Below, piece by piece: positions 8,297 to 23,831 of a stretch of 64,000 nucleotides of DNA. Source of the DNA: Eubacteriales bacterium (GTDB taxonomy: Bacteria > Bacillota > Clostridia > Oscillospirales > CAG-382); contig JAZTXJ010000007.1 of assembly GCA_045636285.1 (NCBI GenBank), positions 35,032-99,031 on the forward strand, in the 5' to 3' direction. The position numbers and the translations under genes are program-made. Below the pieces are notes generated by a model. It was not told the origin of the DNA, made no database searches, and was given only the letters and a program-made list of their open reading frames with translations. Numbering within the stretch: the first letter of the stretch is position 1; each line of letters begins with the position of its first letter.

Positions 8297-9358
8297 TTAT
8301 TTAATAATAACTTCGTGGCCGGTTCTTGCGGATTCGTAAATCGCATCGAGAATCTTCATAAGAACTACGCCGTCCTCCGCGGGAGAGATGCATTCGCAGT
8401 TGCCGAGGCAGGAATCAACAAAGTGCTGAATTTCACGCGAGAAAAGTCCGTCGAAATTGAGCGCGGTATCGCCGAAGGGCTTTATATCCACGAAAACGCC
8501 GTTCATGTCGCCGAAGTATTCAACCTGCGGGCTGATCTTTGCGCCTGCTTTCGTACCGAAGAGCTCGATTTCGCCGCGGTCGTTTTTAAGATTGAGCTTG
8601 AAGGATGCTTCGACCGAAAGGGTAAGACCGTTATCAAAGCGAACCATTGCAGCCGCCATTTCTTCGACGTTGTATTTGAAATCAAAGCCCGTAGTGGTGG
8701 AAACCCAGCTCTGACCGCCGCCTGCGCGGTTGGGGTCGAGGTTATTGTAGGTTACGCCGTATGCCGAAACGGGCTTGGGGTTACCTGCGAGGAAGCGAAC
8801 AAGGTCGATAACGTGAACGCCGAGGTCGAAAAGAGGACCGCCGCCCGAATATTCCTTATCGCCGAACCAGCCGCCGGGACAGCCGTTGCGACGGAGATAG
8901 CTTGCCTTTGCATAGTAAAGGTCGCCCATGGTGCCGCCGTCGATGAATTTGCGGATAAGGTCTGCATCGTTACCGAAGCGGCGAACGAAGCCAACCATCA
9001 AAATTTTGCCGTTCTTTTTAGCGCATTCGAGCATTTCTTCCGCTTCTGCGGTGTTCATTGCCATAGGCTTTTCGCAAAGAACGTGACAGCCTGCGTTGAG
9101 CGCCGCAATAGTCGCGGGCTTGTGCGAGGAGTTCCAGGTGCAGACCGAAACTGCATCGAACTTTTCCTTTGCGAACATTTCGTTAAAATCGGTATAGTAT
9201 GCGGGCACGCCGTATTTTTCCGCATAGTTTTTCGCCTTGTTTTCGTCAAGGTCGCAGACTGCAACGATTTCGCATTTTTCGGGAATTGTTTTATAACCGT
9301 GTGTGTGGCTGTTGCTTATACCGCCCGTGCCGATAATCGCAATTCTGAGCTTTTCCAT
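8297..9358 (-). CDS. Gfo/Idh/MocA-family NAD(P)-dependent oxidoreductase
   Basis: N-terminal Rossmann motif RIAIIGTGGISNSH and EKP motif (VLCEKPMA). Confidence 0.85.
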   Translation of the reverse strand: MEKLRIAIIGTGGISNSHTHGYKTIPEKCEIVAVCDLDENKAKNYAEKYGVPAYYTDFNEMFAKEKFDAVSVCTWNSSHKPATIAALNAGCHVLCEKPMAMNTAEAEEMLECAKKNGKILMVGFVRRFGNDADLIRKFIDGGTMGDLYYAKASYLRRNGCPGGWFGDKEYSGGGPLFDLGVHVIDLVRFLAGNPKPVSAYGVTYNNLDPNRAGGGQSWVSTTTGFDFKYNVEEMAAAMVRFDNGLTLSVEASFKLNLKNDRGEIELFGTKAGAKISPQVEYFGDMNGVFVDIKPFGDTALNFDGLFSREIQHFVDSCLGNCECISPAEDGVVLMKILDAIYESARTGHEVIIK

Positions 9359-9416
9359 TTTTCAATTCTTCGCGGCGAGCCCTGCTCGTTCGCGTTTCCT
9401 TTCGTGTACTATCTTG

Positions 9417-9555: not shown

Positions 9556-10053
9556 ATGATTAAATCTTATATTGACGGTTTGAAAAAATGGAAGCGCTGG
9601 GACGGCCGCACGAGAAGAAGGGATTATTGGCTGTATACGACTTGCAACGTTCTCGTACTGGCAATCGCGATTCCGCTTTCTTCTCTGTTGAGCACGCTCG
9701 GCTTTACCACGCTTGCAATTCTTTCGTGGGTCGCCACTGTCGGTTATGCGGTGCTTCAATTAATTCCCACGCTGGCAATTACGATAAGAAGACTGCACGA
9801 TACGGGCAGAGGCTTTTTCCACCTGCTTATCCAATACCTCCCCGCCGTTGTTTCGGTTATTCTTTCGGCTATCGGCATAGGCGGTCTTTTTAACTCGATC
9901 ATTTCGAGCGCTTGTGAAATCATATTTTTCGTTTGGATGGTATTGCCCGGCACCGTCGGCAGAAACAAGTTCGGTCCCGACCCGAAGGACACTCAGTTCT
10001 CGCAGGAGGATGCGACCAGCTACGGTGAATACCCCAACTTCAGAGGAGAATAA
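9556..10053 (+). CDS. DUF805-family membrane protein (copy A)
   Basis: GRTRRRDYWLY and IRRLHDTGRG motifs typical of DUF805; consensus promoter upstream. Confidence 0.75.
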   Translation: MIKSYIDGLKKWKRWDGRTRRRDYWLYTTCNVLVLAIAIPLSSLLSTLGFTTLAILSWVATVGYAVLQLIPTLAITIRRLHDTGRGFFHLLIQYLPAVVSVILSAIGIGGLFNSIISSACEIIFFVWMVLPGTVGRNKFGPDPKDTQFSQEDATSYGEYPNFRGE

Positions 10054-13500: not shown

Positions 13501-14374
13501 ACATATAAAGCTTTAAGGTCTTTTCTATCCAATAATCGAACTCGGTGTTCGGGCAAAGGTGCTCGAGCGATTTGAAGCGCTTATACGCCTCGACACCGTC
13601 GGACGGGTCGTGCCAGATGTCCGCAAAAACGTAATCGAAGTTACGTTGCTTTGCTTCGTTTTCGGCAAATTCAAAGGCATCGGCGCAGACGATTTCGATT
13701 TTTTCTTTGTTTTCGAAGCAAGGAAGAAGCATTTCCTTAAAGAGCGAAATTACGCTTTCGTCGCGCTCGACGATTGTGACGCTTTCGACCTCGCTCTTTC
13801 TTGCACACATAAAGGCAAAATACCCCAAGCCGAGCCCATAGGTGCAAACCCTGCCGCGAGCTCTTTTTATCGGGAAGCGCTGGGTAACAAGCTCGTTCGG
13901 CATCATCGTCATCCATTCCCTGCCGTTTTGAAGCACCGAAAGAAAGCTGAATTCGCAATCGAAATAGCCGATTTGCGGAATTATTCTGCCGTCGGGCAAG
14001 GTCAGCGGGTCGTCGCAAACGAACGCGGTATAAGGCGCAAGCTTATCGGTGCGGAGCTCCCATTCGTTAAGGATTTTTTTGCCGTTCGGCTTTACCGCCT
14101 TGCAGTAGGGGTCCTCGGTGAAAAGCTTTTCATCTAAATGATGAAGCATAAAGGGGGCGTATGCTTCCCAAATTTCGCGGTCGTATTCAAGCTCGGTATC
14201 GAATCCGAGCGCGGCGCAGAAAAGAAGCGAAAAGGCATCTTCTTCCGAAAGAGAGAAGCTTTCTGTCAGCTCCTTTACCATTTCTTGAGTCACGAAATCG
14301 GGTCGGTTGTTCAAAAGTATCGCCAAGCGTTCGAAAACAAGACCGTTTGCGCGCTTTATTTCATCGTAGGTCAT
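13499..14374 (-). CDS. Hypothetical protein with class I methyltransferase / spermidine-synthase-like fold
   Basis: VCTYGLGLGYF..VERDESV..CADAFEF pattern resembles SAM-binding motifs I-III; ATGA overlap with the upstream MATE gene stop (14371-14374). Confidence 0.45.
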   Translation of the reverse strand: MTYDEIKRANGLVFERLAILLNNRPDFVTQEMVKELTESFSLSEEDAFSLLFCAALGFDTELEYDREIWEAYAPFMLHHLDEKLFTEDPYCKAVKPNGKKILNEWELRTDKLAPYTAFVCDDPLTLPDGRIIPQIGYFDCEFSFLSVLQNGREWMTMMPNELVTQRFPIKRARGRVCTYGLGLGYFAFMCARKSEVESVTIVERDESVISLFKEMLLPCFENKEKIEIVCADAFEFAENEAKQRNFDYVFADIWHDPSDGVEAYKRFKSLEHLCPNTEFDYWIEKTLKLYM

Positions 14375-15759
14375 ACATATACCTCGGCTTTTTTAGTGGC
14401 TTTTATTCGCTTCCTTAATATTATCACAAAGCAGGTGAAATGTGCAAGCGCGGTTATTACCCAAGTGGCAGGATAGGAAATATAGAGTATTTCTATTTCG
14501 CTGTATTGCTGGAAAACGGTGTATATCCATATAACGCGAAGCACGCACGAGCCGAGCAGAGAAACGGTCGCCGAAACGAGCGAAGCGCCCAAGCCGCGAA
14601 GCATACCCGACATTACCTCCATTATGCCGCACAGAAAATAAGGCAAGCCGACAATCAAAAGCCTTTGCATACCGACGCGCATCGAATCGCTGGTTTCGAC
14701 GCTTCCTTCGATACCGAACAGCGACAAAAGGTTCGGGCCGAGCAGGTAACAGATGCTTCCCATCGCCAAGCCGAACACCACTACCATTGCGGTACACATA
14801 CCGCAGACCTTTTTAATACGGTCGTATTTGAGCGCGCCCGAGTTCTGTCCCGTAAAGGCAAGCGCGGCGTGGTAAAATGAATTCATTGCGATATAAATAA
14901 TTCCGTCGATATTCGCGCCCGCGGTATTGCCCGCCATTGTCGCAGGGCCGAAGCCGTTGATCGACGACTGTATGAGCACGTTGGAAATCGAAAACAAACA
15001 GCCCTGCAAGCCTGCGGGAAGTCCGATTTTGATTATCTTCAAAAGCTTATCCTTGCGGACGTACAAATGCTTTATATCGAGCTTACAGCAATCATCGAAT
15101 TTGGTAAGCAGGCGCAACACAAGAAACGCCGAAAGATATTGCGAAATTATCGTCGCAAGTGCAACACCCGCAACGTCAAGACGGCAAACAACGACGAAAA
15201 ACAGATTAAGACAAACGTTCAGAGCGCCCGAAAACAGCAGGAAATAAAACGGGTGCTTCGTATCGCCGCGCGCGTTCAGCACCGCCGCGCCGTAGTTATA
15301 AGCCATTTGCGCGGGCATTCCCAAAAATATAGTACGCATATATAAGGTCGATTTCGCTATAACCGTGTTCGGCACGCCCATAAGTCCGAGCAGGGGCTCT
15401 GCCGCAAAAACACCGAATACGGCGATCAACAAGCCGAGCACGAACGAAATCGTTACCGAGGTGTGCACTATGTCCTTAACGCTGTCGTCACGCCCCGAGC
15501 CGAATGCGTGCGATATAGAAACGTTCGCACCGACCGCAAGACCGATAAACAACCCCGTTATAAGCGCGGTGAGAGAGCCTGTCGAGCCGACCGCCGCCAG
15601 CGCGGTTTCGCCGTCTTCGGCAAAGCGGCCGACGATAACGGTATCGGCAGAGTTATATAAAAACTGCAAAACCCCCGTTGCAAGCACGGGAAGTGCATAA
15701 ACGAGCAGCTTTTTAAAAAGCGGACCTTCGGTCATATTCATTCTCGCGCTTACTGCCAT
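14371..15759 (-). CDS. MATE-family efflux transporter
   Basis: 462 aa, 12 predicted TM helices, N-terminus GPLFKKLLVYALPVLATGVLQFLYNSADTVIVGRF typical of MATE; GGAGG RBS. Confidence 0.85.
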   Translation of the reverse strand: MAVSARMNMTEGPLFKKLLVYALPVLATGVLQFLYNSADTVIVGRFAEDGETALAAVGSTGSLTALITGLFIGLAVGANVSISHAFGSGRDDSVKDIVHTSVTISFVLGLLIAVFGVFAAEPLLGLMGVPNTVIAKSTLYMRTIFLGMPAQMAYNYGAAVLNARGDTKHPFYFLLFSGALNVCLNLFFVVVCRLDVAGVALATIISQYLSAFLVLRLLTKFDDCCKLDIKHLYVRKDKLLKIIKIGLPAGLQGCLFSISNVLIQSSINGFGPATMAGNTAGANIDGIIYIAMNSFYHAALAFTGQNSGALKYDRIKKVCGMCTAMVVVFGLAMGSICYLLGPNLLSLFGIEGSVETSDSMRVGMQRLLIVGLPYFLCGIMEVMSGMLRGLGASLVSATVSLLGSCVLRVIWIYTVFQQYSEIEILYISYPATWVITALAHFTCFVIILRKRIKATKKAEVYV

Positions 15760-15959
15760 AATCAGCCTCCAACGTGAAAAATCAACTAAATTATAAACCT
15801 TTTAATTATAAAGTCAAGCAAATTCGAAAGATAAATATTTTTCTGCGAAAATGTCAAATTTTTTTAATTTGTCTGTCCGAAAATAAGCATTTTGCGTTAC
15901 TTATTATATGAAACCAACGACGTCAACGGTTAATCGATTAAAAAAGGAGATATTAATCT

Positions 15960-16700
15960 ATGAAACTCAAAGCACTTATCGCTTTTGTCTGTGTTGTTGC
16001 GACGGTGTTCGCCTGCTCGGCGTTTGCGCTTGCAGAGGAAAGCGGTATCGAAAACGCTATTCCCGCCGCGGCTGAAAGCATAGCAGAGGACGCGCCCATT
16101 GTTGAGGATGCACCCGCAGTTGAAGAAGTTCCCGCAGTTGAGGAAGCGCCCGCAGTTGAGGATGCTCCCGCAGTTGAGGAAGCTCCCGCAGTTGAGGATG
16201 AAGCGGAAGAAGCCGTTATCGAGCGTTCCGAAAAGTGTACCGCAGACTTTAACGTTCATATACTCGACTACATAAACGATTCGAGCTGCTACTACCGTTC
16301 GGTAAAGGATGTTGTTGCAGACTACGGCGAAGACCTTTACTACCCCGCTTACGAGGGTTATGAAAACGCATGCCAAGCGTACATAATCTATGCGGAAAGA
16401 GGCTATGCCGACGGAAGAATCGGCCCTAAGGTTCTCCAGATCGAATATGCATGTGAGTATCTCGAAATCTGCTGGATCAAGATCGGCGCAACTGTTGCAA
16501 ACGAGGGTATGAATCCCGTTGCGGAAATATACGAAAGCCACGGAGCAGAATTTTATATCAGCGAATACTTCGAGGAAGGCCCCAACAACTACGGCGGTCA
16601 TATCGTCGAAGGCGTTATTGAAGGAAACTGCTACCAATTTTTCGTTAAAACCGTTGAAGAAGGCAAGCTTATTGTTGACAGCTTAACAAAAGCGGAATAA
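15960..16700 (+). CDS. Secreted protein: signal peptide, APAVEE/D tandem repeats, C-terminal domain paralogous to the adjacent putative anti-sigma ectodomain
   Basis: Signal peptide MKLKALIAFVCVVATVFACSAFA; six 18-bp repeats; residues about 95-246 align at roughly 75-80% identity (by eye) to residues about 103-248 of ORF 17305..18051. Confidence 0.65.
   Translation: MKLKALIAFVCVVATVFACSAFALAEESGIENAIPAAAESIAEDAPIVEDAPAVEEVPAVEEAPAVEDAPAVEEAPAVEDEAEEAVIERSEKCTADFNVHILDYINDSSCYYRSVKDVVADYGEDLYYPAYEGYENACQAYIIYAERGYADGRIGPKVLQIEYACEYLEICWIKIGATVANEGMNPVAEIYESHGAEFYISEYFEEGPNNYGGHIVEGVIEGNCYQFFVKTVEEGKLIVDSLTKAE
16091..16198 (+). repeat. Six tandem 18-bp in-frame repeats encoding (A/V)P(A/I)VE(E/D)
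   Basis: Units gcNcccgcagttgagga(a/t) read directly at 16091, 16109, 16127, 16145, 16163 and 16181. Confidence 0.9.
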
Positions 16701-16713
16701 TATTTTTATGTAT

Positions 16714-16741
16714 CCGCCCCGAATATCTATTTTCGGGGCGG
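16714..16741 (+). other. GC-rich hairpin without U-tract between the secreted paralog gene and the sigma gene
   Basis: CCGCCCCGAA tatctat TTCGGGGCGG followed by acgcctc (no T-run); only 34 nt before the sigma start, with no promoter seen in between. Confidence 0.6.
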
Positions 16742-16775
16742 ACGCCTCAAAACAAATTTTCGACAGAGGGTTAGA

Positions 16776-17300
16776 ATGTTTGAAAACGCATTTTTGAACA
16801 CGGTATGCGATAACGCCTTGCGTTCGATAGCATCGGGCGATAAAAGCGCGCTTGCCGTTATATACGACAAAATGCACAGGCAGATATATTCGGCGGCGTG
16901 GGCTATACTGAACAATCATCAGGATGCCGAGGACGCATTGCAGAATACCCTTTGCGAAATACTTTATTGTGCAGACAGCTACAAAGGGCCGAACGCAAAG
17001 GCTTTTATAATATCGGTCGCGCGGAACCAAGCGCGAAACATTTTGAGAAAACGCAAAAACGAAACCGTTTTACCGCCGGACGAAACACACGCATCCGACT
17101 TTAACGCAGAATCGGAATTTATTTATCTCGATGCGCTCTCGACGCTTAGCGAAAGAGAACGCGAAGCGGTGATACTTAAAATATACTGCAAAATGAAGCA
17201 CAAAGAAATCGCCGGACTTTTGGGCATAACCGCTTCGGCGGCAGAGAAGCTTTACCAAAGAGGAATAAGCAAGCTTCGCAAATACTATAAAGGAGGGTAG
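16776..17300 (+). CDS. ECF-type RNA polymerase sigma-70 family factor
   Basis: 174 aa; region 2-like (DAEDALQNT) and region 4 HTH (KHKEIAGLLGITASAAEKLYQRGISKLR). Confidence 0.8.
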   Translation: MFENAFLNTVCDNALRSIASGDKSALAVIYDKMHRQIYSAAWAILNNHQDAEDALQNTLCEILYCADSYKGPNAKAFIISVARNQARNILRKRKNETVLPPDETHASDFNAESEFIYLDALSTLSEREREAVILKIYCKMKHKEIAGLLGITASAAEKLYQRGISKLRKYYKGG

Positions 17301-17304
17301 CTCC

Positions 17305-18051
17305 GTGAAAAATATTAAAAAAGGTATTAAAAACGACTTCGACAGTATCGAACACAGGTCAAAAGAAGAAATGCTCGGATTTGCGGGAATAAGACCGTCC
17401 GCACCGCGAAAAAGGCGCAGACTGTGCGCCGACAGGCTGATAAGCGTCGCGCTTGCGGCGGCAATGCTGCTTTCGTTCGGGGCAATCCTCACGCTTGCCG
17501 AAAACAACAATGCGCTTATTGACGAAATATTTGTCAAAATAGAAAATATGTTTCCCGATAAAGATGCCGAAAAATCACCCGCGCCTATCGACCGCAGAAT
17601 GAAACCGAGTAACGAATTCAACGTTCTTCTGCTCGACTACGCAAACGACTCGAAATATTACTACCGTTCGGTAAAGGACGCCGTTGCCGACTACGGCGAA
17701 AACCTTTACTACCCCGCTTACGAGGGCTATGAAAACGCATTCCAAGCGCACATAATCTACTCGATGAGAGGCGATAATCCCTCTTTCCAGATCGAATATG
17801 CACGCGAAACTCTCGAAATCTGCTGGATCAAGATCGGCGTAACGGTTGCAAACGGAGGCATGAATCCCTTTGTGGAAAAATACGAAAGCCACGGAGCAGA
17901 ATTTTATATCAGCGAATACATCAAGGAAGGTCCCAACAATTACAGCGGTCATCTCGTCGAAGGTGTTCTTGAAGGAAACAGCTATCAATTCTTCGTTAAA
18001 ACCGTTGAAGAAGGCAAGCTTATCGTCGACAGCCTTGCAAAAGCGGAATAA
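17305..18051 (+). CDS. Putative single-pass anti-sigma factor with extracytoplasmic sensor domain (GTG start)
   Basis: Starts 4 nt after the sigma gene with an AGGAGGG RBS; short cytoplasmic N-terminus, TM helix LISVALAAAMLLSFGAILTLA, 150-aa outer domain; role assigned by position only. Confidence 0.5.
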   Translation: MKNIKKGIKNDFDSIEHRSKEEMLGFAGIRPSAPRKRRRLCADRLISVALAAAMLLSFGAILTLAENNNALIDEIFVKIENMFPDKDAEKSPAPIDRRMKPSNEFNVLLLDYANDSKYYYRSVKDAVADYGENLYYPAYEGYENAFQAHIIYSMRGDNPSFQIEYARETLEICWIKIGVTVANGGMNPFVEKYESHGAEFYISEYIKEGPNNYSGHLVEGVLEGNSYQFFVKTVEEGKLIVDSLAKAE

Positions 18052-18062
18052 GGGCAAAAATT

Positions 18063-18092
18063 CTCTCCGAATAAAAATCGGAGAGTTTTTTT
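18063..18092 (+). terminator. Terminator after the anti-sigma gene
   Basis: CTCTCCGA ataaaaa TCGGAGAG TTTTTTT. Confidence 0.8.
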
Positions 18093-18100
18093 CGTTCTTC

Positions 18101-18121
18101 TAACAAATTCATCACAAATAT
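18101..18121 (+). promoter_or_regulatory. Two ACAAAT boxes 11 bp apart upstream of the two-component operon
   Basis: taACAAATtca tcACAAATatg (boxes at 18103-08 and 18114-19), then weak -35 TTTATA (18124-29) -17- TATAAT (18147-52). Confidence 0.5.
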
Positions 18122-18186
18122 GATTTATAATTGCAAAAAAGTATGTTATAATAAGTGCAGTTACTGCAAAGGCGGTGAAAATTTTT

Positions 18187-18834
18187 ATGGCGAGAATTCT
18201 TATCGTAGAAGACGAACGGCCGATTCGCAACCTTATTCAGCGCAATTTAGAGCTTGTCGGTCACACCTGCGTAGGCTTGAGCGACGGAAACGAAGCACTT
18301 GAAATTATGGAGAGCGACAGATTCGACCTTATGATATTCGACATTATGCTCCCGCACGCATCGGGTTACGAGCTTATAACCCACGCAAGCGGAACACCCG
18401 TTATTTTCGTAACGGCAAAAGAGGGCATAAACGATCGATTAAAGGGGCTTTCCTTGGGCGCGGACGATTATATTGTAAAGCCGTTCGAAATTCAGGAGCT
18501 TCTTTTGCGCGTGCGTGCCGTTTTGCGACGCACCAAAAAAGAAGACGAAATGCTTAATTTCGACGACGTAACTATCGATTTTTCGGCGAAGAAGGTTTTC
18601 CGTTCGGGAATCGAGGTAGTCCTTACCCCAAAGGAATATTCCCTGCTCGAAACGCTTATTCTTAACCGAAACATCGCCCTCTCGCGCGAGAAGCTTATTG
18701 CGCTCGTTTGGGGATATGATTACGAGGGCGACACCCGCACGGTCGACGTGCATATACGCCAGCTTCGCGCAAAGCTCGGTCTTTCGGAACGCTTAAAAAC
18801 ACTCTACAAAACAGGATACAGGTTCGAGCTATGA
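18187..18834 (+). CDS. OmpR/PhoB-family response regulator
   Basis: Receiver (ILIVEDE..DLMIFDIMLP) plus winged-helix output (LTPKEYSLLETL..VDVHIRQLR..YKTGYRFE); ATG 18187 preferred over GTG 18175. Confidence 0.9.
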   Translation: MARILIVEDERPIRNLIQRNLELVGHTCVGLSDGNEALEIMESDRFDLMIFDIMLPHASGYELITHASGTPVIFVTAKEGINDRLKGLSLGADDYIVKPFEIQELLLRVRAVLRRTKKEDEMLNFDDVTIDFSAKKVFRSGIEVVLTPKEYSLLETLILNRNIALSREKLIALVWGYDYEGDTRTVDVHIRQLRAKLGLSERLKTLYKTGYRFEL

Positions 18835-20198
18835 GATTCAAGGACAAAACCTATCTTATCACGCTCGTGCTCTTTTTGCTGTTTCTGAACACGGGAATCT
18901 TTTCGCTCGCCTATTACACACAGCAGAAAAACATCGATGCCGCCGAAGCGCTTGCAAAATCCGAGCAAAGCGTTATTGCGAAATCCTTCGAGGACGATAT
19001 TACCTATCTCGGCAATATCGGCAGAGCACAGGTTATGAACTCCTATGGCAGCTACTACGTCGAAAAGGATATAGGGCTCTGCTTTTATTCGTTTATCGAC
19101 AGCGAAACGAAATACACCAATCTCCCCAAGGGCTCTGTCATTCCGCCGAGCGGAAGCTGTTCGACACAGCGCATAAACGGAAAACGTATATTTTTTATAA
19201 GCGAAACGATTGCAAACGGACAGTATCGGATTACCTATGCAAAGGATATAACCTATCTCGACGAGGATTTTAAAAACCTTTCGATAGTTTATATCTTCAC
19301 CTCGCTGGGTGCTTCGGCACTGCTTGCATTTATACTTTTCTTCGTGCTTCACAAGCTTTCGAGCCCGCTTGAGCGCTTGAGCAAGGCAACGCAGGAATTT
19401 GCAAACGGCAACTATGCAATACGCGCCGACGAATCGGGCAAGGACGAATTTTCGCTTCTTGCCGCCGACTTCAACCGTATGGCAGAGCATATCGGCGCAC
19501 AAATGAACGAGCTCGAGGAAAACGCCGAAATAAAACAGCGTATGCTCGATAATCTCGCCCACGAAATGCGTACACCGCTTACCTCTATCCGCGGCTATGC
19601 CGAATATCTGCTGAACGCAAATATAGGCGAGGACGAAAAAATCGAAGCTACCGAATTTATAATAAGTGAAGCGGAGCGCTTGAAGCTGATAAGCGAGCGC
19701 CTGCTCGACGATGCGTTTATAAGAGCAAACGGCATTCAGCCCGAAAACACGAATTTGGGCGAAATCACCGCAAACGCCGTTAAGAAGCTTTCGTTCACCG
19801 CGGCTTCGAGCGGGGTCGAGCTTCGCGTTTCGGCAAAGAGCGTTCACTGCGTATGCGATTCGGTTCTTGTCGGAATGGCTGTTACAAACCTTATCGGCAA
19901 CGCAATAAAAGCCTGCAAGGGCGGCGGCAGGGTCGAAGCAAGCTGTTACTGCGAAAACGGTCACGCCGTTATTTCGGTGTGCGACAGCGGTATCGGTATG
20001 ACCGAAGAACAGCTAAAGCGAATCACGGAGCCCTTTTACCGCACCGATAAATCGCGCAACCGCGCAGACGGCGGCACGGGCTTGGGACTTGCGCTGTGCG
20101 ACCGTATCGCAAAGGCGCACGGAGCGGTTTTGCGGTTCGAATCCCGCGTGGGCGAAGGCACGAAAGCCTTTTTGATGTTCCCGATAGCGCAAGAATAA
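18831..20198 (+). CDS. Sensor histidine kinase (2 TM, HAMP, HisKA, HATPase_c)
   Basis: H-box LAHEMRTPLTSIRGYAEYL; N, G1 and G2 boxes (NLIGNAIKA, DSGIGM, GTGLGLAL); ATGA overlap with the response-regulator stop. Confidence 0.9.
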   Translation: MRFKDKTYLITLVLFLLFLNTGIFSLAYYTQQKNIDAAEALAKSEQSVIAKSFEDDITYLGNIGRAQVMNSYGSYYVEKDIGLCFYSFIDSETKYTNLPKGSVIPPSGSCSTQRINGKRIFFISETIANGQYRITYAKDITYLDEDFKNLSIVYIFTSLGASALLAFILFFVLHKLSSPLERLSKATQEFANGNYAIRADESGKDEFSLLAADFNRMAEHIGAQMNELEENAEIKQRMLDNLAHEMRTPLTSIRGYAEYLLNANIGEDEKIEATEFIISEAERLKLISERLLDDAFIRANGIQPENTNLGEITANAVKKLSFTAASSGVELRVSAKSVHCVCDSVLVGMAVTNLIGNAIKACKGGGRVEASCYCENGHAVISVCDSGIGMTEEQLKRITEPFYRTDKSRNRADGGTGLGLALCDRIAKAHGAVLRFESRVGEGTKAFLMFPIAQE

Positions 20199-20201
20199 CT
20201 T

Positions 20202-20254
20202 TTACAAATCTCTAATATTTTCCGAACAAATTCAGAATATCGCGCAGTTATGCT
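20202..20254 (+). promoter_or_regulatory. ACAAAT boxes 22 bp apart plus putative -10 upstream of paralog 1
   Basis: ttACAAATctc (20204-09) .. gaACAAATtca (20226-31) -17- TATGCT (20249-54). Confidence 0.5.
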
Positions 20255-20279
20255 GTTTTCACAGAAAGGAGGAGTGTTT

Positions 20280-21146
20280 ATGAAAAATAAGACACTCGCA
20301 TTAATAACTGCGGCACTTATCACCGCCGCGGCGCTTATTCTCACCGCAGGTCTTTCTCTGCTCGATACCTCGGCTATCGATGATTCTGTTGTGGAATCGA
20401 CCGCTGACAGCGGAACTGTCGGCGCAGAGCTTCCCGAAGAAATCGTAACCGAAAACGAAGCGGAAGAAGCACCCGAAGAGGACGCACCCGCAGAAGACGC
20501 GCCCGCAGAATATCCCGACACTACTCTCCCCGCGCTCGATACTCTCGAAGCCGTCACCACAAGCGACGAAACCGGTTACGATAACCCCGGCTTTGAATAC
20601 GTTATCTGGAAGGATATCGTTATCGACGTATTCGAGCACAAAACCGGCAAGCTTGTCGGTCAGGTATGGCTTACCGAAGACGAGCTCTATAACGAATTCT
20701 GCAAAATCTTCGAAGCCGATTTCGACCACACCGCAGGTCTTTTCGACCCCAACAACCCCGAAGACGTTCCCGTTTATATTCCCGAAGCGGAATACCGTGT
20801 TGAATTCTATTGGGTACACCGCCTTACCGAAAGAGCAAGCGGTTGCTGCGGCAGCCTTGCATTTTCCTACGGTGTAGAGAATAACGAAATTTACGAATAC
20901 ACCCAAACAGGCTATTCTCTCGCAAACGGCGAAACGGTTATCGCGTTTATGGAATCGCTCGTAGCGAAAAAGATCGCACAGCTCGAAAACGGCGTTATCG
21001 ACGAGCTCGAAGCAGAGGAATCCTTTGCACACATTATCGGCTTTGACGGCGAAAACAGCTGCTGGAACGGCACCACCCTTTCTACCGGCGAATTTATCCC
21101 CGGTTCTCCCCGCTATGCAGAAAGATTCCCCTATTTAGCAAATTAA
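20280..21146 (+). CDS. Membrane-anchored/secreted protein of unknown function (paralog 1)
   Basis: N-terminus MKNKTLALITAALITAAALILTAGLS, acidic Pro/Ala/Glu linker, C-terminus ..ERFPYLAN; AGGAGG RBS; paralog of 22926..23831. Confidence 0.65.
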   Translation: MKNKTLALITAALITAAALILTAGLSLLDTSAIDDSVVESTADSGTVGAELPEEIVTENEAEEAPEEDAPAEDAPAEYPDTTLPALDTLEAVTTSDETGYDNPGFEYVIWKDIVIDVFEHKTGKLVGQVWLTEDELYNEFCKIFEADFDHTAGLFDPNNPEDVPVYIPEAEYRVEFYWVHRLTERASGCCGSLAFSYGVENNEIYEYTQTGYSLANGETVIAFMESLVAKKIAQLENGVIDELEAEESFAHIIGFDGENSCWNGTTLSTGEFIPGSPRYAERFPYLAN

Positions 21147-22900: not shown

Positions 22901-22925
22901 ATTCACACAGAAAGGAGGAGTGTTT

Positions 22926-23831
22926 ATGAAAAACAAGACACTCGCATTAATCACTGCGGTGCTTATCACCGCATCGGCGCTTATCCTTACTGCGGGACTT
23001 TCGTTCCTGAACACCTCTGCGATCGACGATTCGACCGTTGAATCGACAGCAGACAGCGGAACCTCGGGCGCAGAGCTCGAAAATACCGTGACCGACGAAA
23101 ACTATCCCGTTATCGAGGAAGGCCCTCTCACAGATATTCCCGCGTATGATCCCGAAACCGCAATTCCCGAAGCGGAAAACGCACCTCTCGAAGAGGAAAC
23201 TCCCGTTGTTGACGGTTCTGTTCCCGTTGAAAACGCTCCCGTCGAAAACGCACCCGCTTACGAATACCCCGTTTTCGATTACGTTGAAGGCGACGCAAGA
23301 AACGTTTACGTCTGCGGCGGAGAACACGTCGACAAGGGCGTTGTTATCGACGTTTATTCCCACAAAACAGGCAAGCTCGTAGGTCAGCTCGCGTTCACCT
23401 CGCAGGAGGTCACAAGCTATATCAGCTCGCTTATGCGTGAAGAATTCAAGCCCGAAAACGAGCTTTGGATCGAACAGGATATAAGCTGTGTTGCTCTTCC
23501 CGAGGGTGATTACAGAATCGAAGTCTATGCAGGCACGTGGTTCTCCTACACCTACGGCACAAGCGGCATTTTTGAGCTTACTCAGTGCACCCTTACCTTC
23601 AGCGGCGGCGAAAAGCTCACCGGCTATATCGATTTCCTTATCGCAGACCTTATTGCCGATATCGAAGCAGGTAACGTCGAAGCTCCCGATCCCGAAATGG
23701 CGGTTTCCAAGCTCATTTACGCAGGAATCGAAGGCTATTGGGAAGGATATTACAACGAAGTTTGCGATATGTATATCCCCGGCGCAGGCAGATGGTGCGA
23801 ACGCTTCCCCTACCTTGCAACCGAAGAATAA
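22926..23831 (+). CDS. Membrane-anchored/secreted protein of unknown function (paralog 2)
   Basis: First about 48 residues nearly identical to 20280..21146, C-terminus ..CERFPYLATEE; identical AGGAGGAGTGTTTATG translation-initiation region. Confidence 0.65.
   Translation: MKNKTLALITAVLITASALILTAGLSFLNTSAIDDSTVESTADSGTSGAELENTVTDENYPVIEEGPLTDIPAYDPETAIPEAENAPLEEETPVVDGSVPVENAPVENAPAYEYPVFDYVEGDARNVYVCGGEHVDKGVVIDVYSHKTGKLVGQLAFTSQEVTSYISSLMREEFKPENELWIEQDISCVALPEGDYRIEVYAGTWFSYTYGTSGIFELTQCTLTFSGGEKLTGYIDFLIADLIADIEAGNVEAPDPEMAVSKLIYAGIEGYWEGYYNEVCDMYIPGAGRWCERFPYLATEE

Follow-up and report, generated by a model that had tools for sequence, protein, structure and literature searches.

A secreted paralog of a putative anti-sigma ectodomain at the head of an ECF sigma operon in gut Clostridia

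Why would a bacterium encode the ectodomain of a putative membrane sensor a second time, as a free secreted protein, at the head of the operon that the sensor appears to control? Extracytoplasmic function (ECF) sigma/anti-sigma pairs are the commonest single-pass transmembrane signalling devices in bacteria, and to our knowledge the signal and the accessory-protein logic are not known for most of them. We addressed this question in a 64-kb window (the whole stretch of DNA analysed here, from a contig of a Eubacteriales bacterium) that carries three consecutive genes on the + strand. The first, sec (15960..16700), encodes a secreted paralog of 246 aa, identified by its open reading frame (ORF), its translation, BLASTP against the third protein and orthologs of 214-246 aa. 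The second (16776..17300) encodes an ECF-type sigma factor of 174 aa. The third (17305..18051) encodes a single-pass protein of 248 aa, hereafter the anchored protein, which its ORF, alignment and hydropathy make a putative anti-sigma factor. This locus offers a clean natural case of a sensor ectodomain that is also a free secreted protein, apparently made from the same promoter, with two copies that evolution has re-synchronised. We tentatively propose, with somewhat less than even confidence, that both copies bind one extracellular ligand, which the anchored sensor transduces and the secreted copy buffers or neutralises.

To establish how closely the two proteins are related, we compared them by BLASTP. 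They were identical at 120/171 positions (70%, E = 2e-83), and identity rose to 78-79% over the C-terminal ~146-150 aa, which bears out the ~75-80% ectodomain identity reported by an initial annotation of this stretch; the three ORFs are also as given there. The shared domain occupies nt ~16242-16697 in sec and nt ~17611-18048 in the ectodomain of the anchored gene. At the DNA level, we counted 78 differences in 450 ungapped positions (~83% identity), and the long identical nucleotide stretches mentioned in that annotation proved to be runs of up to 40 nt. The similarity was far above chance and stopped at the stop codons. Its description of the upstream gene as a secreted paralog holds.

A tblastn search of the window returned the domain in two copies only, those of sec and the anchored gene. 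Searching 5.8 billion protein clusters found 12 proteins, and a profile search of 1.84 billion representatives gave 17 matches, 12 of which were the secreted (~210-246 aa) or the anchored (~210-254 aa) form. We judged the remaining five, all giant proteins, to be spurious. Giant proteins P0018, P0020, P0024 and P0026-28 matched profile positions ~114-136, and all three that we inspected (P0018, P0020 and P0026) were Fn3/Ig-like repeat proteins with many matches of a short G..Y.F.V hairpin. Among the proteins searched, the domain belongs only to genes of the sec or the anchored type, from some ten gut Clostridia lineages represented by metagenome-assembled genomes (MAGs). The hosts are uncultured Clostridia/Eubacteriales MAGs, for which two records give water buffalo caecum as the source. 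The initial annotation had raised the prospect of a common repeat of surface proteins in this genome; with two copies in the window, and with all true database relatives of the sec or anchored type, we ruled this out.

The AlphaFold2 model of the domain was confident (pLDDT 89) and mostly beta. Foldseek against PDB gave no fold match (best E = 0.21, TM 0.35) and no significant match to a carbohydrate-binding module (CBM), and neither Foldseek nor profiles returned a significant CBM-like or other known fold of the kind that the initial annotation had proposed to look for. Neither protein matched Pfam, NCBIfam, PADLOC or PHROGs outside the low-complexity linker, where the sole PHROGs and Pfam "hits" lie, or any PDB sequence, and a Pfam run on all 23 family members gave no domain match. 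Kinship with DUF4367 was unsupported (hhalign probability 3-9%), and we found no homology to the acidic-linker protein encoded downstream at 20250..21146. We regard the domain as a new, confidently modelled extracellular domain family.

We then compared the two copies across lineages. Within one genome, the secreted and anchored domains were 79, 81, 61, 74, 66, 43 and 64% identical; same-type domains of deep lineages were 24-50% identical. A neighbour-joining tree grouped the secreted copy with the anchored copy of the same lineage in five lineages, with bootstrap values of 92-100. The synonymous distance (dS) in the window was 0.34 between the paralogs, versus 0.50-1.49 to the orthologs. In the L008 clade dS was saturated, and the nonsynonymous distance (dN) was 0.24 between paralogs versus ~0.5-0.6 to other clades. 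The DNA of the window is a mosaic: the domain flanks are closest to the paralog (82-92%), and the central loop region is closest to the ortholog in L001 (88-93%). In L002, a 114-nt tract was 89% identical to the paralog and the rest 57% (Fisher p = 2e-10), with the orthologs more distant in the tract. Because the domains cluster by lineage and not by type, and because the DNA is mosaic, these sequence patterns indicate that recurrent gene conversion homogenises the two domain copies within genomes. In the window's clade, where DNA can be compared, the central segment stays type-specific. We considered independent duplication in each lineage as another cause of clustering by lineage and judged it unlikely, because type-specific N-termini (the signal peptide MKLKALIA... 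versus MKRIK.GI.KDFD...), gene order and promoter are common to the lineages and because conversion tracts are visible in the DNA.

The dN/dS ratios of 0.07-0.38 show purifying selection on both copies. Compared with the sigma factor, the ectodomain changes more quickly, with 29-71% versus 57-90% identity for the same genome pairs and, between deep lineages, 24-46% versus 57-64%. The likeness that the copies have kept suggests that they bind the same thing or each other. It might instead have no functional meaning: sec could be an ordinary secreted or wall protein that arose by tandem duplication of the ectodomain and has its own role, such as adhesion or nutrient binding, resembling the sensor only because nearby direct repeats convert each other. 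Indeed, conversion is favoured by the direct orientation of the copies and the 1.3 kb between them, and the locus encodes other secreted acidic-linker proteins. However, nine lineages, even those with saturated synonymous sites, have kept sec in the leading position after the operon promoter, selection maintains both copies, and database searches found the domain nowhere outside the sec/anchored gene pair. We consider such an absence of coupling unlikely; two features of transcription and gene content that favour it are given below.

The putative promoter of the sec-sigma-anti-sigma operon is a bipartite promoter-like motif, GTCCGAAAA-N14-TACTTA, at 15875..15903 (+), recognised by its conservation. 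The exact motif is single-copy in the window, where 0 matches are expected by chance, and one exact copy lies upstream of sec in 10 out of 10 loci covering the region, amid otherwise diverged spacers. Its geometry is promoter-like, with two blocks ~16-17 nt apart, and does not fit the sigma-70 consensus. In the L025 locus, which has no sec, TGTCCGAAAA-N12-GTTATATA, with the same -35 block and a similar -10 block, sits directly ahead of the sigma gene. The order there is a dapB-like gene, its U-tract terminator, the motif, the 5' untranslated region (5'UTR) block that precedes sec in L008, and sigma. Since motif and 5'UTR directly precede sigma in L025, the motif belongs to the sigma operon, with sec as the first gene behind it where sec is present. 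Autoregulation is the norm for ECF sigma factors, and for that reason we infer, as the simplest reading, that the motif is the sigma factor's own promoter. Allowing up to 3 mismatches in a scan of the window for other regulon members gave chance-level matches only, and the exact pattern occurred in seven unrelated contigs of the JGI metagenomes, none with sec, sigma or anti-sigma genes.

Between sec and sigma lies a GC-rich hairpin at 16710..16745 (+; core 16713-16742, -24.2 kcal/mol, z = -5.6). It is followed by GCCUCAAAAC and hence has no U tract, as the initial annotation had stated. The sec-sigma gap is 65-93 nt and contains a GC-rich hairpin in 7 out of 9 lineages, with three different stem sequences; only the L024 hairpin carries a U-rich tail. 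The gap shrinks to 18 nt in L009, where the hairpin is absent, and to 32 nt in L011, where the gap folds only weakly. Rfam gave no match for the hairpin or the leader. We likewise saw no promoter in the 34 nt past the hairpin, in agreement with the initial annotation, which had, however, missed a sigma-70-like promoter candidate just before it. This candidate, TTGACA-17-TAATAT at 16675..16703 (+), covers the last codons and the stop of sec and scored 10/12 matches in a consensus scan. Of the 9 sec-bearing lineages, 7 retain TTGACA and, 17 nt downstream of it, a TAAnAT/TAGTAT box, part of this conservation being coding constraint; in the anchored gene, the matching place at its end has TCGACA...TAAGGG. 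The candidate promoter would start transcripts at the hairpin and may supply basal sigma/anti-sigma expression. It could thereby uncouple the sigma genes from sec, which, together with the absence of sec in L025, favours the view that the likeness of the copies has no functional meaning.

A canonical intrinsic terminator (8-bp stem, then TTTTTTT) was found by terminator scan at 18063..18092 (+), at the end of the operon. An equivalent U-tract hairpin follows the anchored gene in most related loci, and a canonical U-tract terminator occurs only there. Co-transcription of sec with sigma, which the initial annotation had considered possible, is well supported by these comparisons, though not proven, because the motif lies upstream of sec, L025 has the arrangement described above, some gaps are only 18-32 nt and the terminator comes only after the anchored gene. 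The order sec, sigma, anchored gene, OmpR-type response regulator, histidine kinase and one or two further secreted proteins held in nine lineages (the window, L001, L002, L003 with L013/L014, L008, L009/L010, L011, L012 and L024), which answers the proposal in the initial annotation to look for the three-gene order in related genomes.

The middle gene is an ECF (group 4) sigma factor, as initially annotated: its product matched only Pfam Sigma70_r2 (1.6e-11) and Sigma70_r4_2 (3.7e-12), that is, regions 2 and 4, and scored 74.9 bits against NCBIfam TIGR02937 (sigma70-ECF; cut-off 42.9). The case for the anchored protein as its anti-sigma factor comes from position and topology. Its gene has a GTG start 4 nt past the sigma stop and a ribosome-binding site, GGAGGG, and the sigma-anchored gap is 4-14 nt, or an overlap, in ten lineages. 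The protein has ~44 cytoplasmic residues followed by one transmembrane (TM) segment at aa 45-63 (17437-17493, +; hydropathy). Its first 30 residues (17305-17394, +; alignment) follow the pattern MK(R)IK.GI.KDFD.I.HK.KEE.L..AG, which is highly conserved among 12 members. The layout of an ECF sigma/anti-sigma module is thus present, with the anchored gene adjoining sigma downstream and a single TM in N-in orientation, and the position and topology described in the initial annotation are borne out. By profile, the protein had no Pfam family at E <= 1 and no NCBIfam or PDB sequence match. Class I anti-sigma factors are marked by a cytoplasmic domain of ~80 aa that forms four helices and often contains HxxxCxxC, and by a zf-HC2 or RskA-type match; here, Pfam gave no class I match (ASD/ZAS, zf-HC2) at E <= 1, and the cytoplasmic part is only 44 aa, without CxxC. 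We infer that the anchored protein is a putative anti-sigma factor.

If it is not, the adjacent OmpR-type two-component system might control sigma through the motif, as CseBC does for sigE in Streptomyces, and both domain proteins would serve the envelope as outputs or accessories. In nine lineages the genes of the response regulator and kinase have stayed immediately downstream, the regulator resembles CseB (2.9e-50, sub-threshold), the anchored N-terminus matches no anti-sigma family and the motif is no textbook ECF promoter, all of which speak for such control. However, the anchored gene lies 4-14 nt from sigma or overlaps it in all lineages, and a short, highly conserved cytoplasmic N-terminus with a single TM is the standard anti-sigma layout. 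Moreover, L025 keeps the motif, sigma and the anchored protein without an adjoining two-component system, and by inspection the motif lacks direct repeats of the kind that OmpR-family regulators bind. We therefore regard control by the two-component system in place of an anti-sigma factor as distinctly improbable.

How might the anchored protein release sigma? At the outer end of the TM lies an AxA-like site, TLA|E, at aa 63-65 (17491-17499, +; alignment). Ala65 is invariant in 12 out of 12 anchored members, and the -3 position is T, V or A (TLA, ALA, AFA, VFA and TAA). The site is followed directly by an amphipathic helix at aa 70-83 (17512-17553, +; identified by hydrophobic moment), with a moment of at least 0.45 in 9 out of 12 members and 0.35-0.39 in the other three. 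This anatomy, the concerted evolution of the copies and the promoter candidate in the 3' end of sec were all absent from the initial annotation. A similar layout is seen in the SigV/RsiV systems of Bacillus subtilis and C. difficile (ECF30). There, too, an ECF sigma gene precedes a single-pass anti-sigma gene whose product has a short cytoplasmic N-terminus, a TM that is a latent signal peptide, an AxA-type site at about residue 65, an amphipathic helix after it and a ligand-binding ectodomain that is freed by cleavage; the likeness here is one of layout. In RsiV, signal peptidase cuts between residues 66 and 67 only once lysozyme binding displaces the protective amphipathic helices, and RasP completes the release of SigV (PMC6066255). 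RsiP is a second case in which signal peptidase makes the site-1 cut (PMC8844934). The differences are clear. Neither DUF4179 nor DUF3298 nor any other profile gave a match to the anchored protein, and its ectodomain is unrelated: a lysozyme-binding ectodomain (DUF3298/PdaC-like) had no Pfam match in the 23 members and no PDB sequence match. A secreted ectodomain copy with a gene of its own is not known from RsiV systems, and cleavage here is predicted from the layout. The anchored protein may thus work like RsiV, by analogy, without being a member of the RsiV/DUF4179 family by sequence. It would add a second candidate class, outside DUF4179, of anti-sigma factors gated by signal peptidase.

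Under the shared-ligand reading, the 44-aa cytoplasmic N-terminus of the anchored protein would hold sigma. Ligand at the ectodomain would displace the amphipathic helix next to the membrane and thereby give signal peptidase access to the AxA-like site (residue 65), and site-2 proteolysis would then free sigma. Free sigma would transcribe its own operon from the conserved motif, so that induction would also yield the secreted copy. That copy would be the ectodomain in a constitutively released form, with the same ligand either buffered or neutralised; this would feed back negatively on the sensor, protect the cell, or do both. The secreted copy would be made first and probably in excess, and the hairpin without a U tract would probably set a higher ratio of secreted protein to regulator. 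Basal amounts of sigma and anti-sigma would come from the sigma-70-like promoter in the last codons of sec. The placement of sec in the operon and its matched binding domain would be upheld because the two proteins share a ligand.

Several observations weigh against this reading. The fold has no PDB match in Foldseek and hence gives no pointer to a ligand, and the N-terminus that is meant to bind sigma matches no known anti-sigma domain in Pfam or NCBIfam. There is no DUF4179 profile match either, and the parallel with RsiV is therefore one of layout alone. The motif has no AAC/CGT signature of the kind common to many ECF promoters, and it could be read by another sigma factor or depend on the neighbouring response regulator. 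With direct repeats 1.3 kb from each other, conversion might be neutral and simply follow from their proximity. The L025 lineage apparently works without sec, and the sigma-70-like promoter within sec, if active, would let expression of sigma and anti-sigma run independently of sec.

The two copies may also bind each other. The secreted protein could associate with the anchored ectodomain as a pseudo-homodimer and either shield it from site-1 cleavage, in the manner of RseB, or trigger cleavage in an autocrine fashion, and gene conversion would keep the two interaction surfaces compatible. This fits the co-evolution of the copies within each lineage and the place of sec in the operon, and paralogs of one fold often form homo- or heterodimers. 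RseB was also among the weak Foldseek matches, without significance (TMq 0.33, E = 1.0). By contrast, a structural match at this level is noise, partnership presupposes that the domain self-associates, and it does not require, though it is compatible with, a central region that escapes conversion and stays type-specific, as seen in the window's clade. On balance we find a partnership of this kind somewhat doubtful. A further version, which we think quite unlikely, makes the secreted domain the signal itself: homotypic binding would trigger or block cleavage of the anchored protein, giving an autocrine or kin-sensing loop through the ECF sigma factor. Conversion would then keep signal and receptor matched in each genome, and lineages would drift into private channels.

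Among known systems, we compared the locus with SigI/RsgI of Clostridium (Acetivibrio) thermocellum, whose membrane anti-sigma factors carry extracellular modules homologous to modules of secreted proteins (PMC10328401, PMC6582324). The comparison had been made in the initial annotation, and it stands as an analogy, a pairing of sensor and secreted protein in a Clostridia organism of a polysaccharide-rich habitat. It does not extend to the components: the sigma factor here is ECF-type and not SigI, and we found no match to RsgI_N (PF12791), no CBM (CBM3), PA14 or glycoside hydrolase module and no other Pfam match. The secreted homolog here is, moreover, a dedicated first-gene paralog held alike by conversion and not an enzyme of the regulon. 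The RseA/RseB system of Escherichia coli SigE likewise includes a soluble extracytoplasmic protein of the sigma operon, and here such a protein could modulate site-1 cleavage of the anti-sigma factor. However, RseB is not a paralog of the periplasmic domain of RseA and is encoded after RseA, and the fold likeness here is at noise level (TMq 0.33, E = 1).

In the SigE-CseA-CseB-CseC system of Streptomyces coelicolor, the gene for an ECF sigma factor neighbours those for an accessory extracytoplasmic protein and for a two-component system of the OmpR type. No anti-sigma factor is known for that system, and the lipoprotein CseA has no sensor as a paralog; here, by contrast, the two-component system lies past a canonical terminator and has its own promoter-like site. 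Firmicute ECF anti-sigma factors of the DUF4367/LolA-like kind often have a beta-rich ectodomain, and a DUF4367 pair occurs in the L001 genome. The resemblance to our domain was weak and local (YxPEGY ... QIEY), with a profile-profile probability of 8.7%, and 0 out of 23 members matched DUF4367 in Pfam. Animal soluble decoy receptors, such as IL-1R2, sFlt-1 and osteoprotegerin, are secreted ectodomain copies that titrate the ligand of a membrane receptor. Their likeness to the present pair is one of logic, with no homology; many arise by shedding or alternative splicing, and the decoy role here is hypothetical.

In a full-text literature search we came across no earlier case of an anti-sigma ectodomain with a secreted paralog that is encoded within the operon and kept alike by conversion, although this does not prove absence. 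The novelty lies in a new ectodomain family and in the accessory logic added to an otherwise standard ECF module. Should the two copies share one ligand, the locus would be a bacterial counterpart of soluble decoy receptors, a buffer or neutraliser coupled to its own sensor; should they bind one another, it would be a self-signal made of protein, and of a new kind. The secreted copy could serve as soluble bait for finding the ligand, which makes the system experimentally tractable. Members of the family come from only a few uncultured gut Clostridia, and the functions proposed for it are read from sequence.

Further inspection of sec revealed features of the secreted form. The translation begins with a signal peptide at aa 1-25 (15960-16034, +; junction AFALA|EE), which ends in an xLA|E similar to the anchored site, and the protein aligns with the anchored protein from the TM segment onward. 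Tandem Repeats Finder placed an 18-nt tandem repeat at 16101..16198 (+), whose 5.4 copies encode an acidic Ala/Pro/Val/Glu linker; this is the (APAVEE)n linker recognised in the initial annotation, and its length varies among lineages. The four extra Cys residues recorded there are likewise present within the shared ~150 aa (SSC, NAC, YAC and GNC), with a fifth just ahead, at EKC. Their codons lie at 16233-16310, 16368-16376, 16449-16457 and 16629-16637 in the window. Within the window's clade, the secreted orthologs retain two sec-specific Cys (S.C-YY and GNC-Y) that most anchored copies lack; these residues may form a disulfide particular to the secreted form. One database protein, P0007 (ENA contig, 1571 nt), has a sec-like N-terminal half and a C-terminal ~115 residues identical to the anchored protein P0004 (cf. 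L003). Either the metagenome assembly joined the two copies across the repeat, or conversion was nearly complete.

The L025 locus (Logan SRR30205944 contig, 1-2908) is minimal, with the motif, a sigma factor of 166 aa and an anchored protein of 210 aa, and without linker, amphipathic helix, upstream sec or downstream two-component system. Its arrangement is either the ancestral state or a secondary loss. In L001 (5472-6029), the sigma ORF extends 11 codons beyond the usual ...YYKGG end and overlaps the anchored start by 29 nt, the usual sigma stop codon having been lost in that lineage.

The genes downstream of the operon encode an OmpR-family response regulator (18175..18834, +) and a HAMP/HisKA histidine kinase (18831..20198, +), both identified by NCBIfam and Pfam matches. 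They follow the anchored gene in nine lineages and not in L025, and probably form a transcription unit separate from sec-sigma-anchored. A promoter-like TTTATA-17-TATAAT lies ahead of the response regulator at 18124-18152. The intergenic region between the anchored and response-regulator genes contains the block TATAACAAATTCAyCACAAAT followed by TATAAT (18100-18152 in the window) in L001, L002, L003, L008, L009, L011 and L012; the block is kept in most related loci examined and is more diverged in L008 and L012. It is probably a promoter or operator of the two-component system. On the other side of sec, the divergent MatE efflux gene (14371..15759) has a near-consensus sigma-70 promoter, TTGACT-16-TATAAT, at 15790-15817 (-), which is kept in related loci and accounts for the first conserved spacer block at 15782-15803.

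A second paralogous pair of envelope proteins is encoded at 20250-21146 and 22920-23831 (+) of the window. Both have an N-terminal anchor or signal, MKNKTLALITA.LITA.ALILTAGLS, an acidic linker and a C-terminal domain with no Pfam match and no homology to the sec/anchored domain. Orthologs lie at 10232-11101 in L002, 8953-9798 in L003, 7948-9616 in L008 and 3661-5409 in L011, and most of the related loci that reach that far carry one or two copies downstream of the regulator and kinase genes. In L001, the ortholog of the downstream envelope protein is split into two ORFs (9001-9411 and 9574-9876), being either a pseudogene or an assembly frameshift. The L001 genome also carries a second ECF sigma gene (region 1-1391), followed by genes for a DUF4367 anti-sigma-like protein and a 151-aa protein, ~4 kb upstream of its sec locus.

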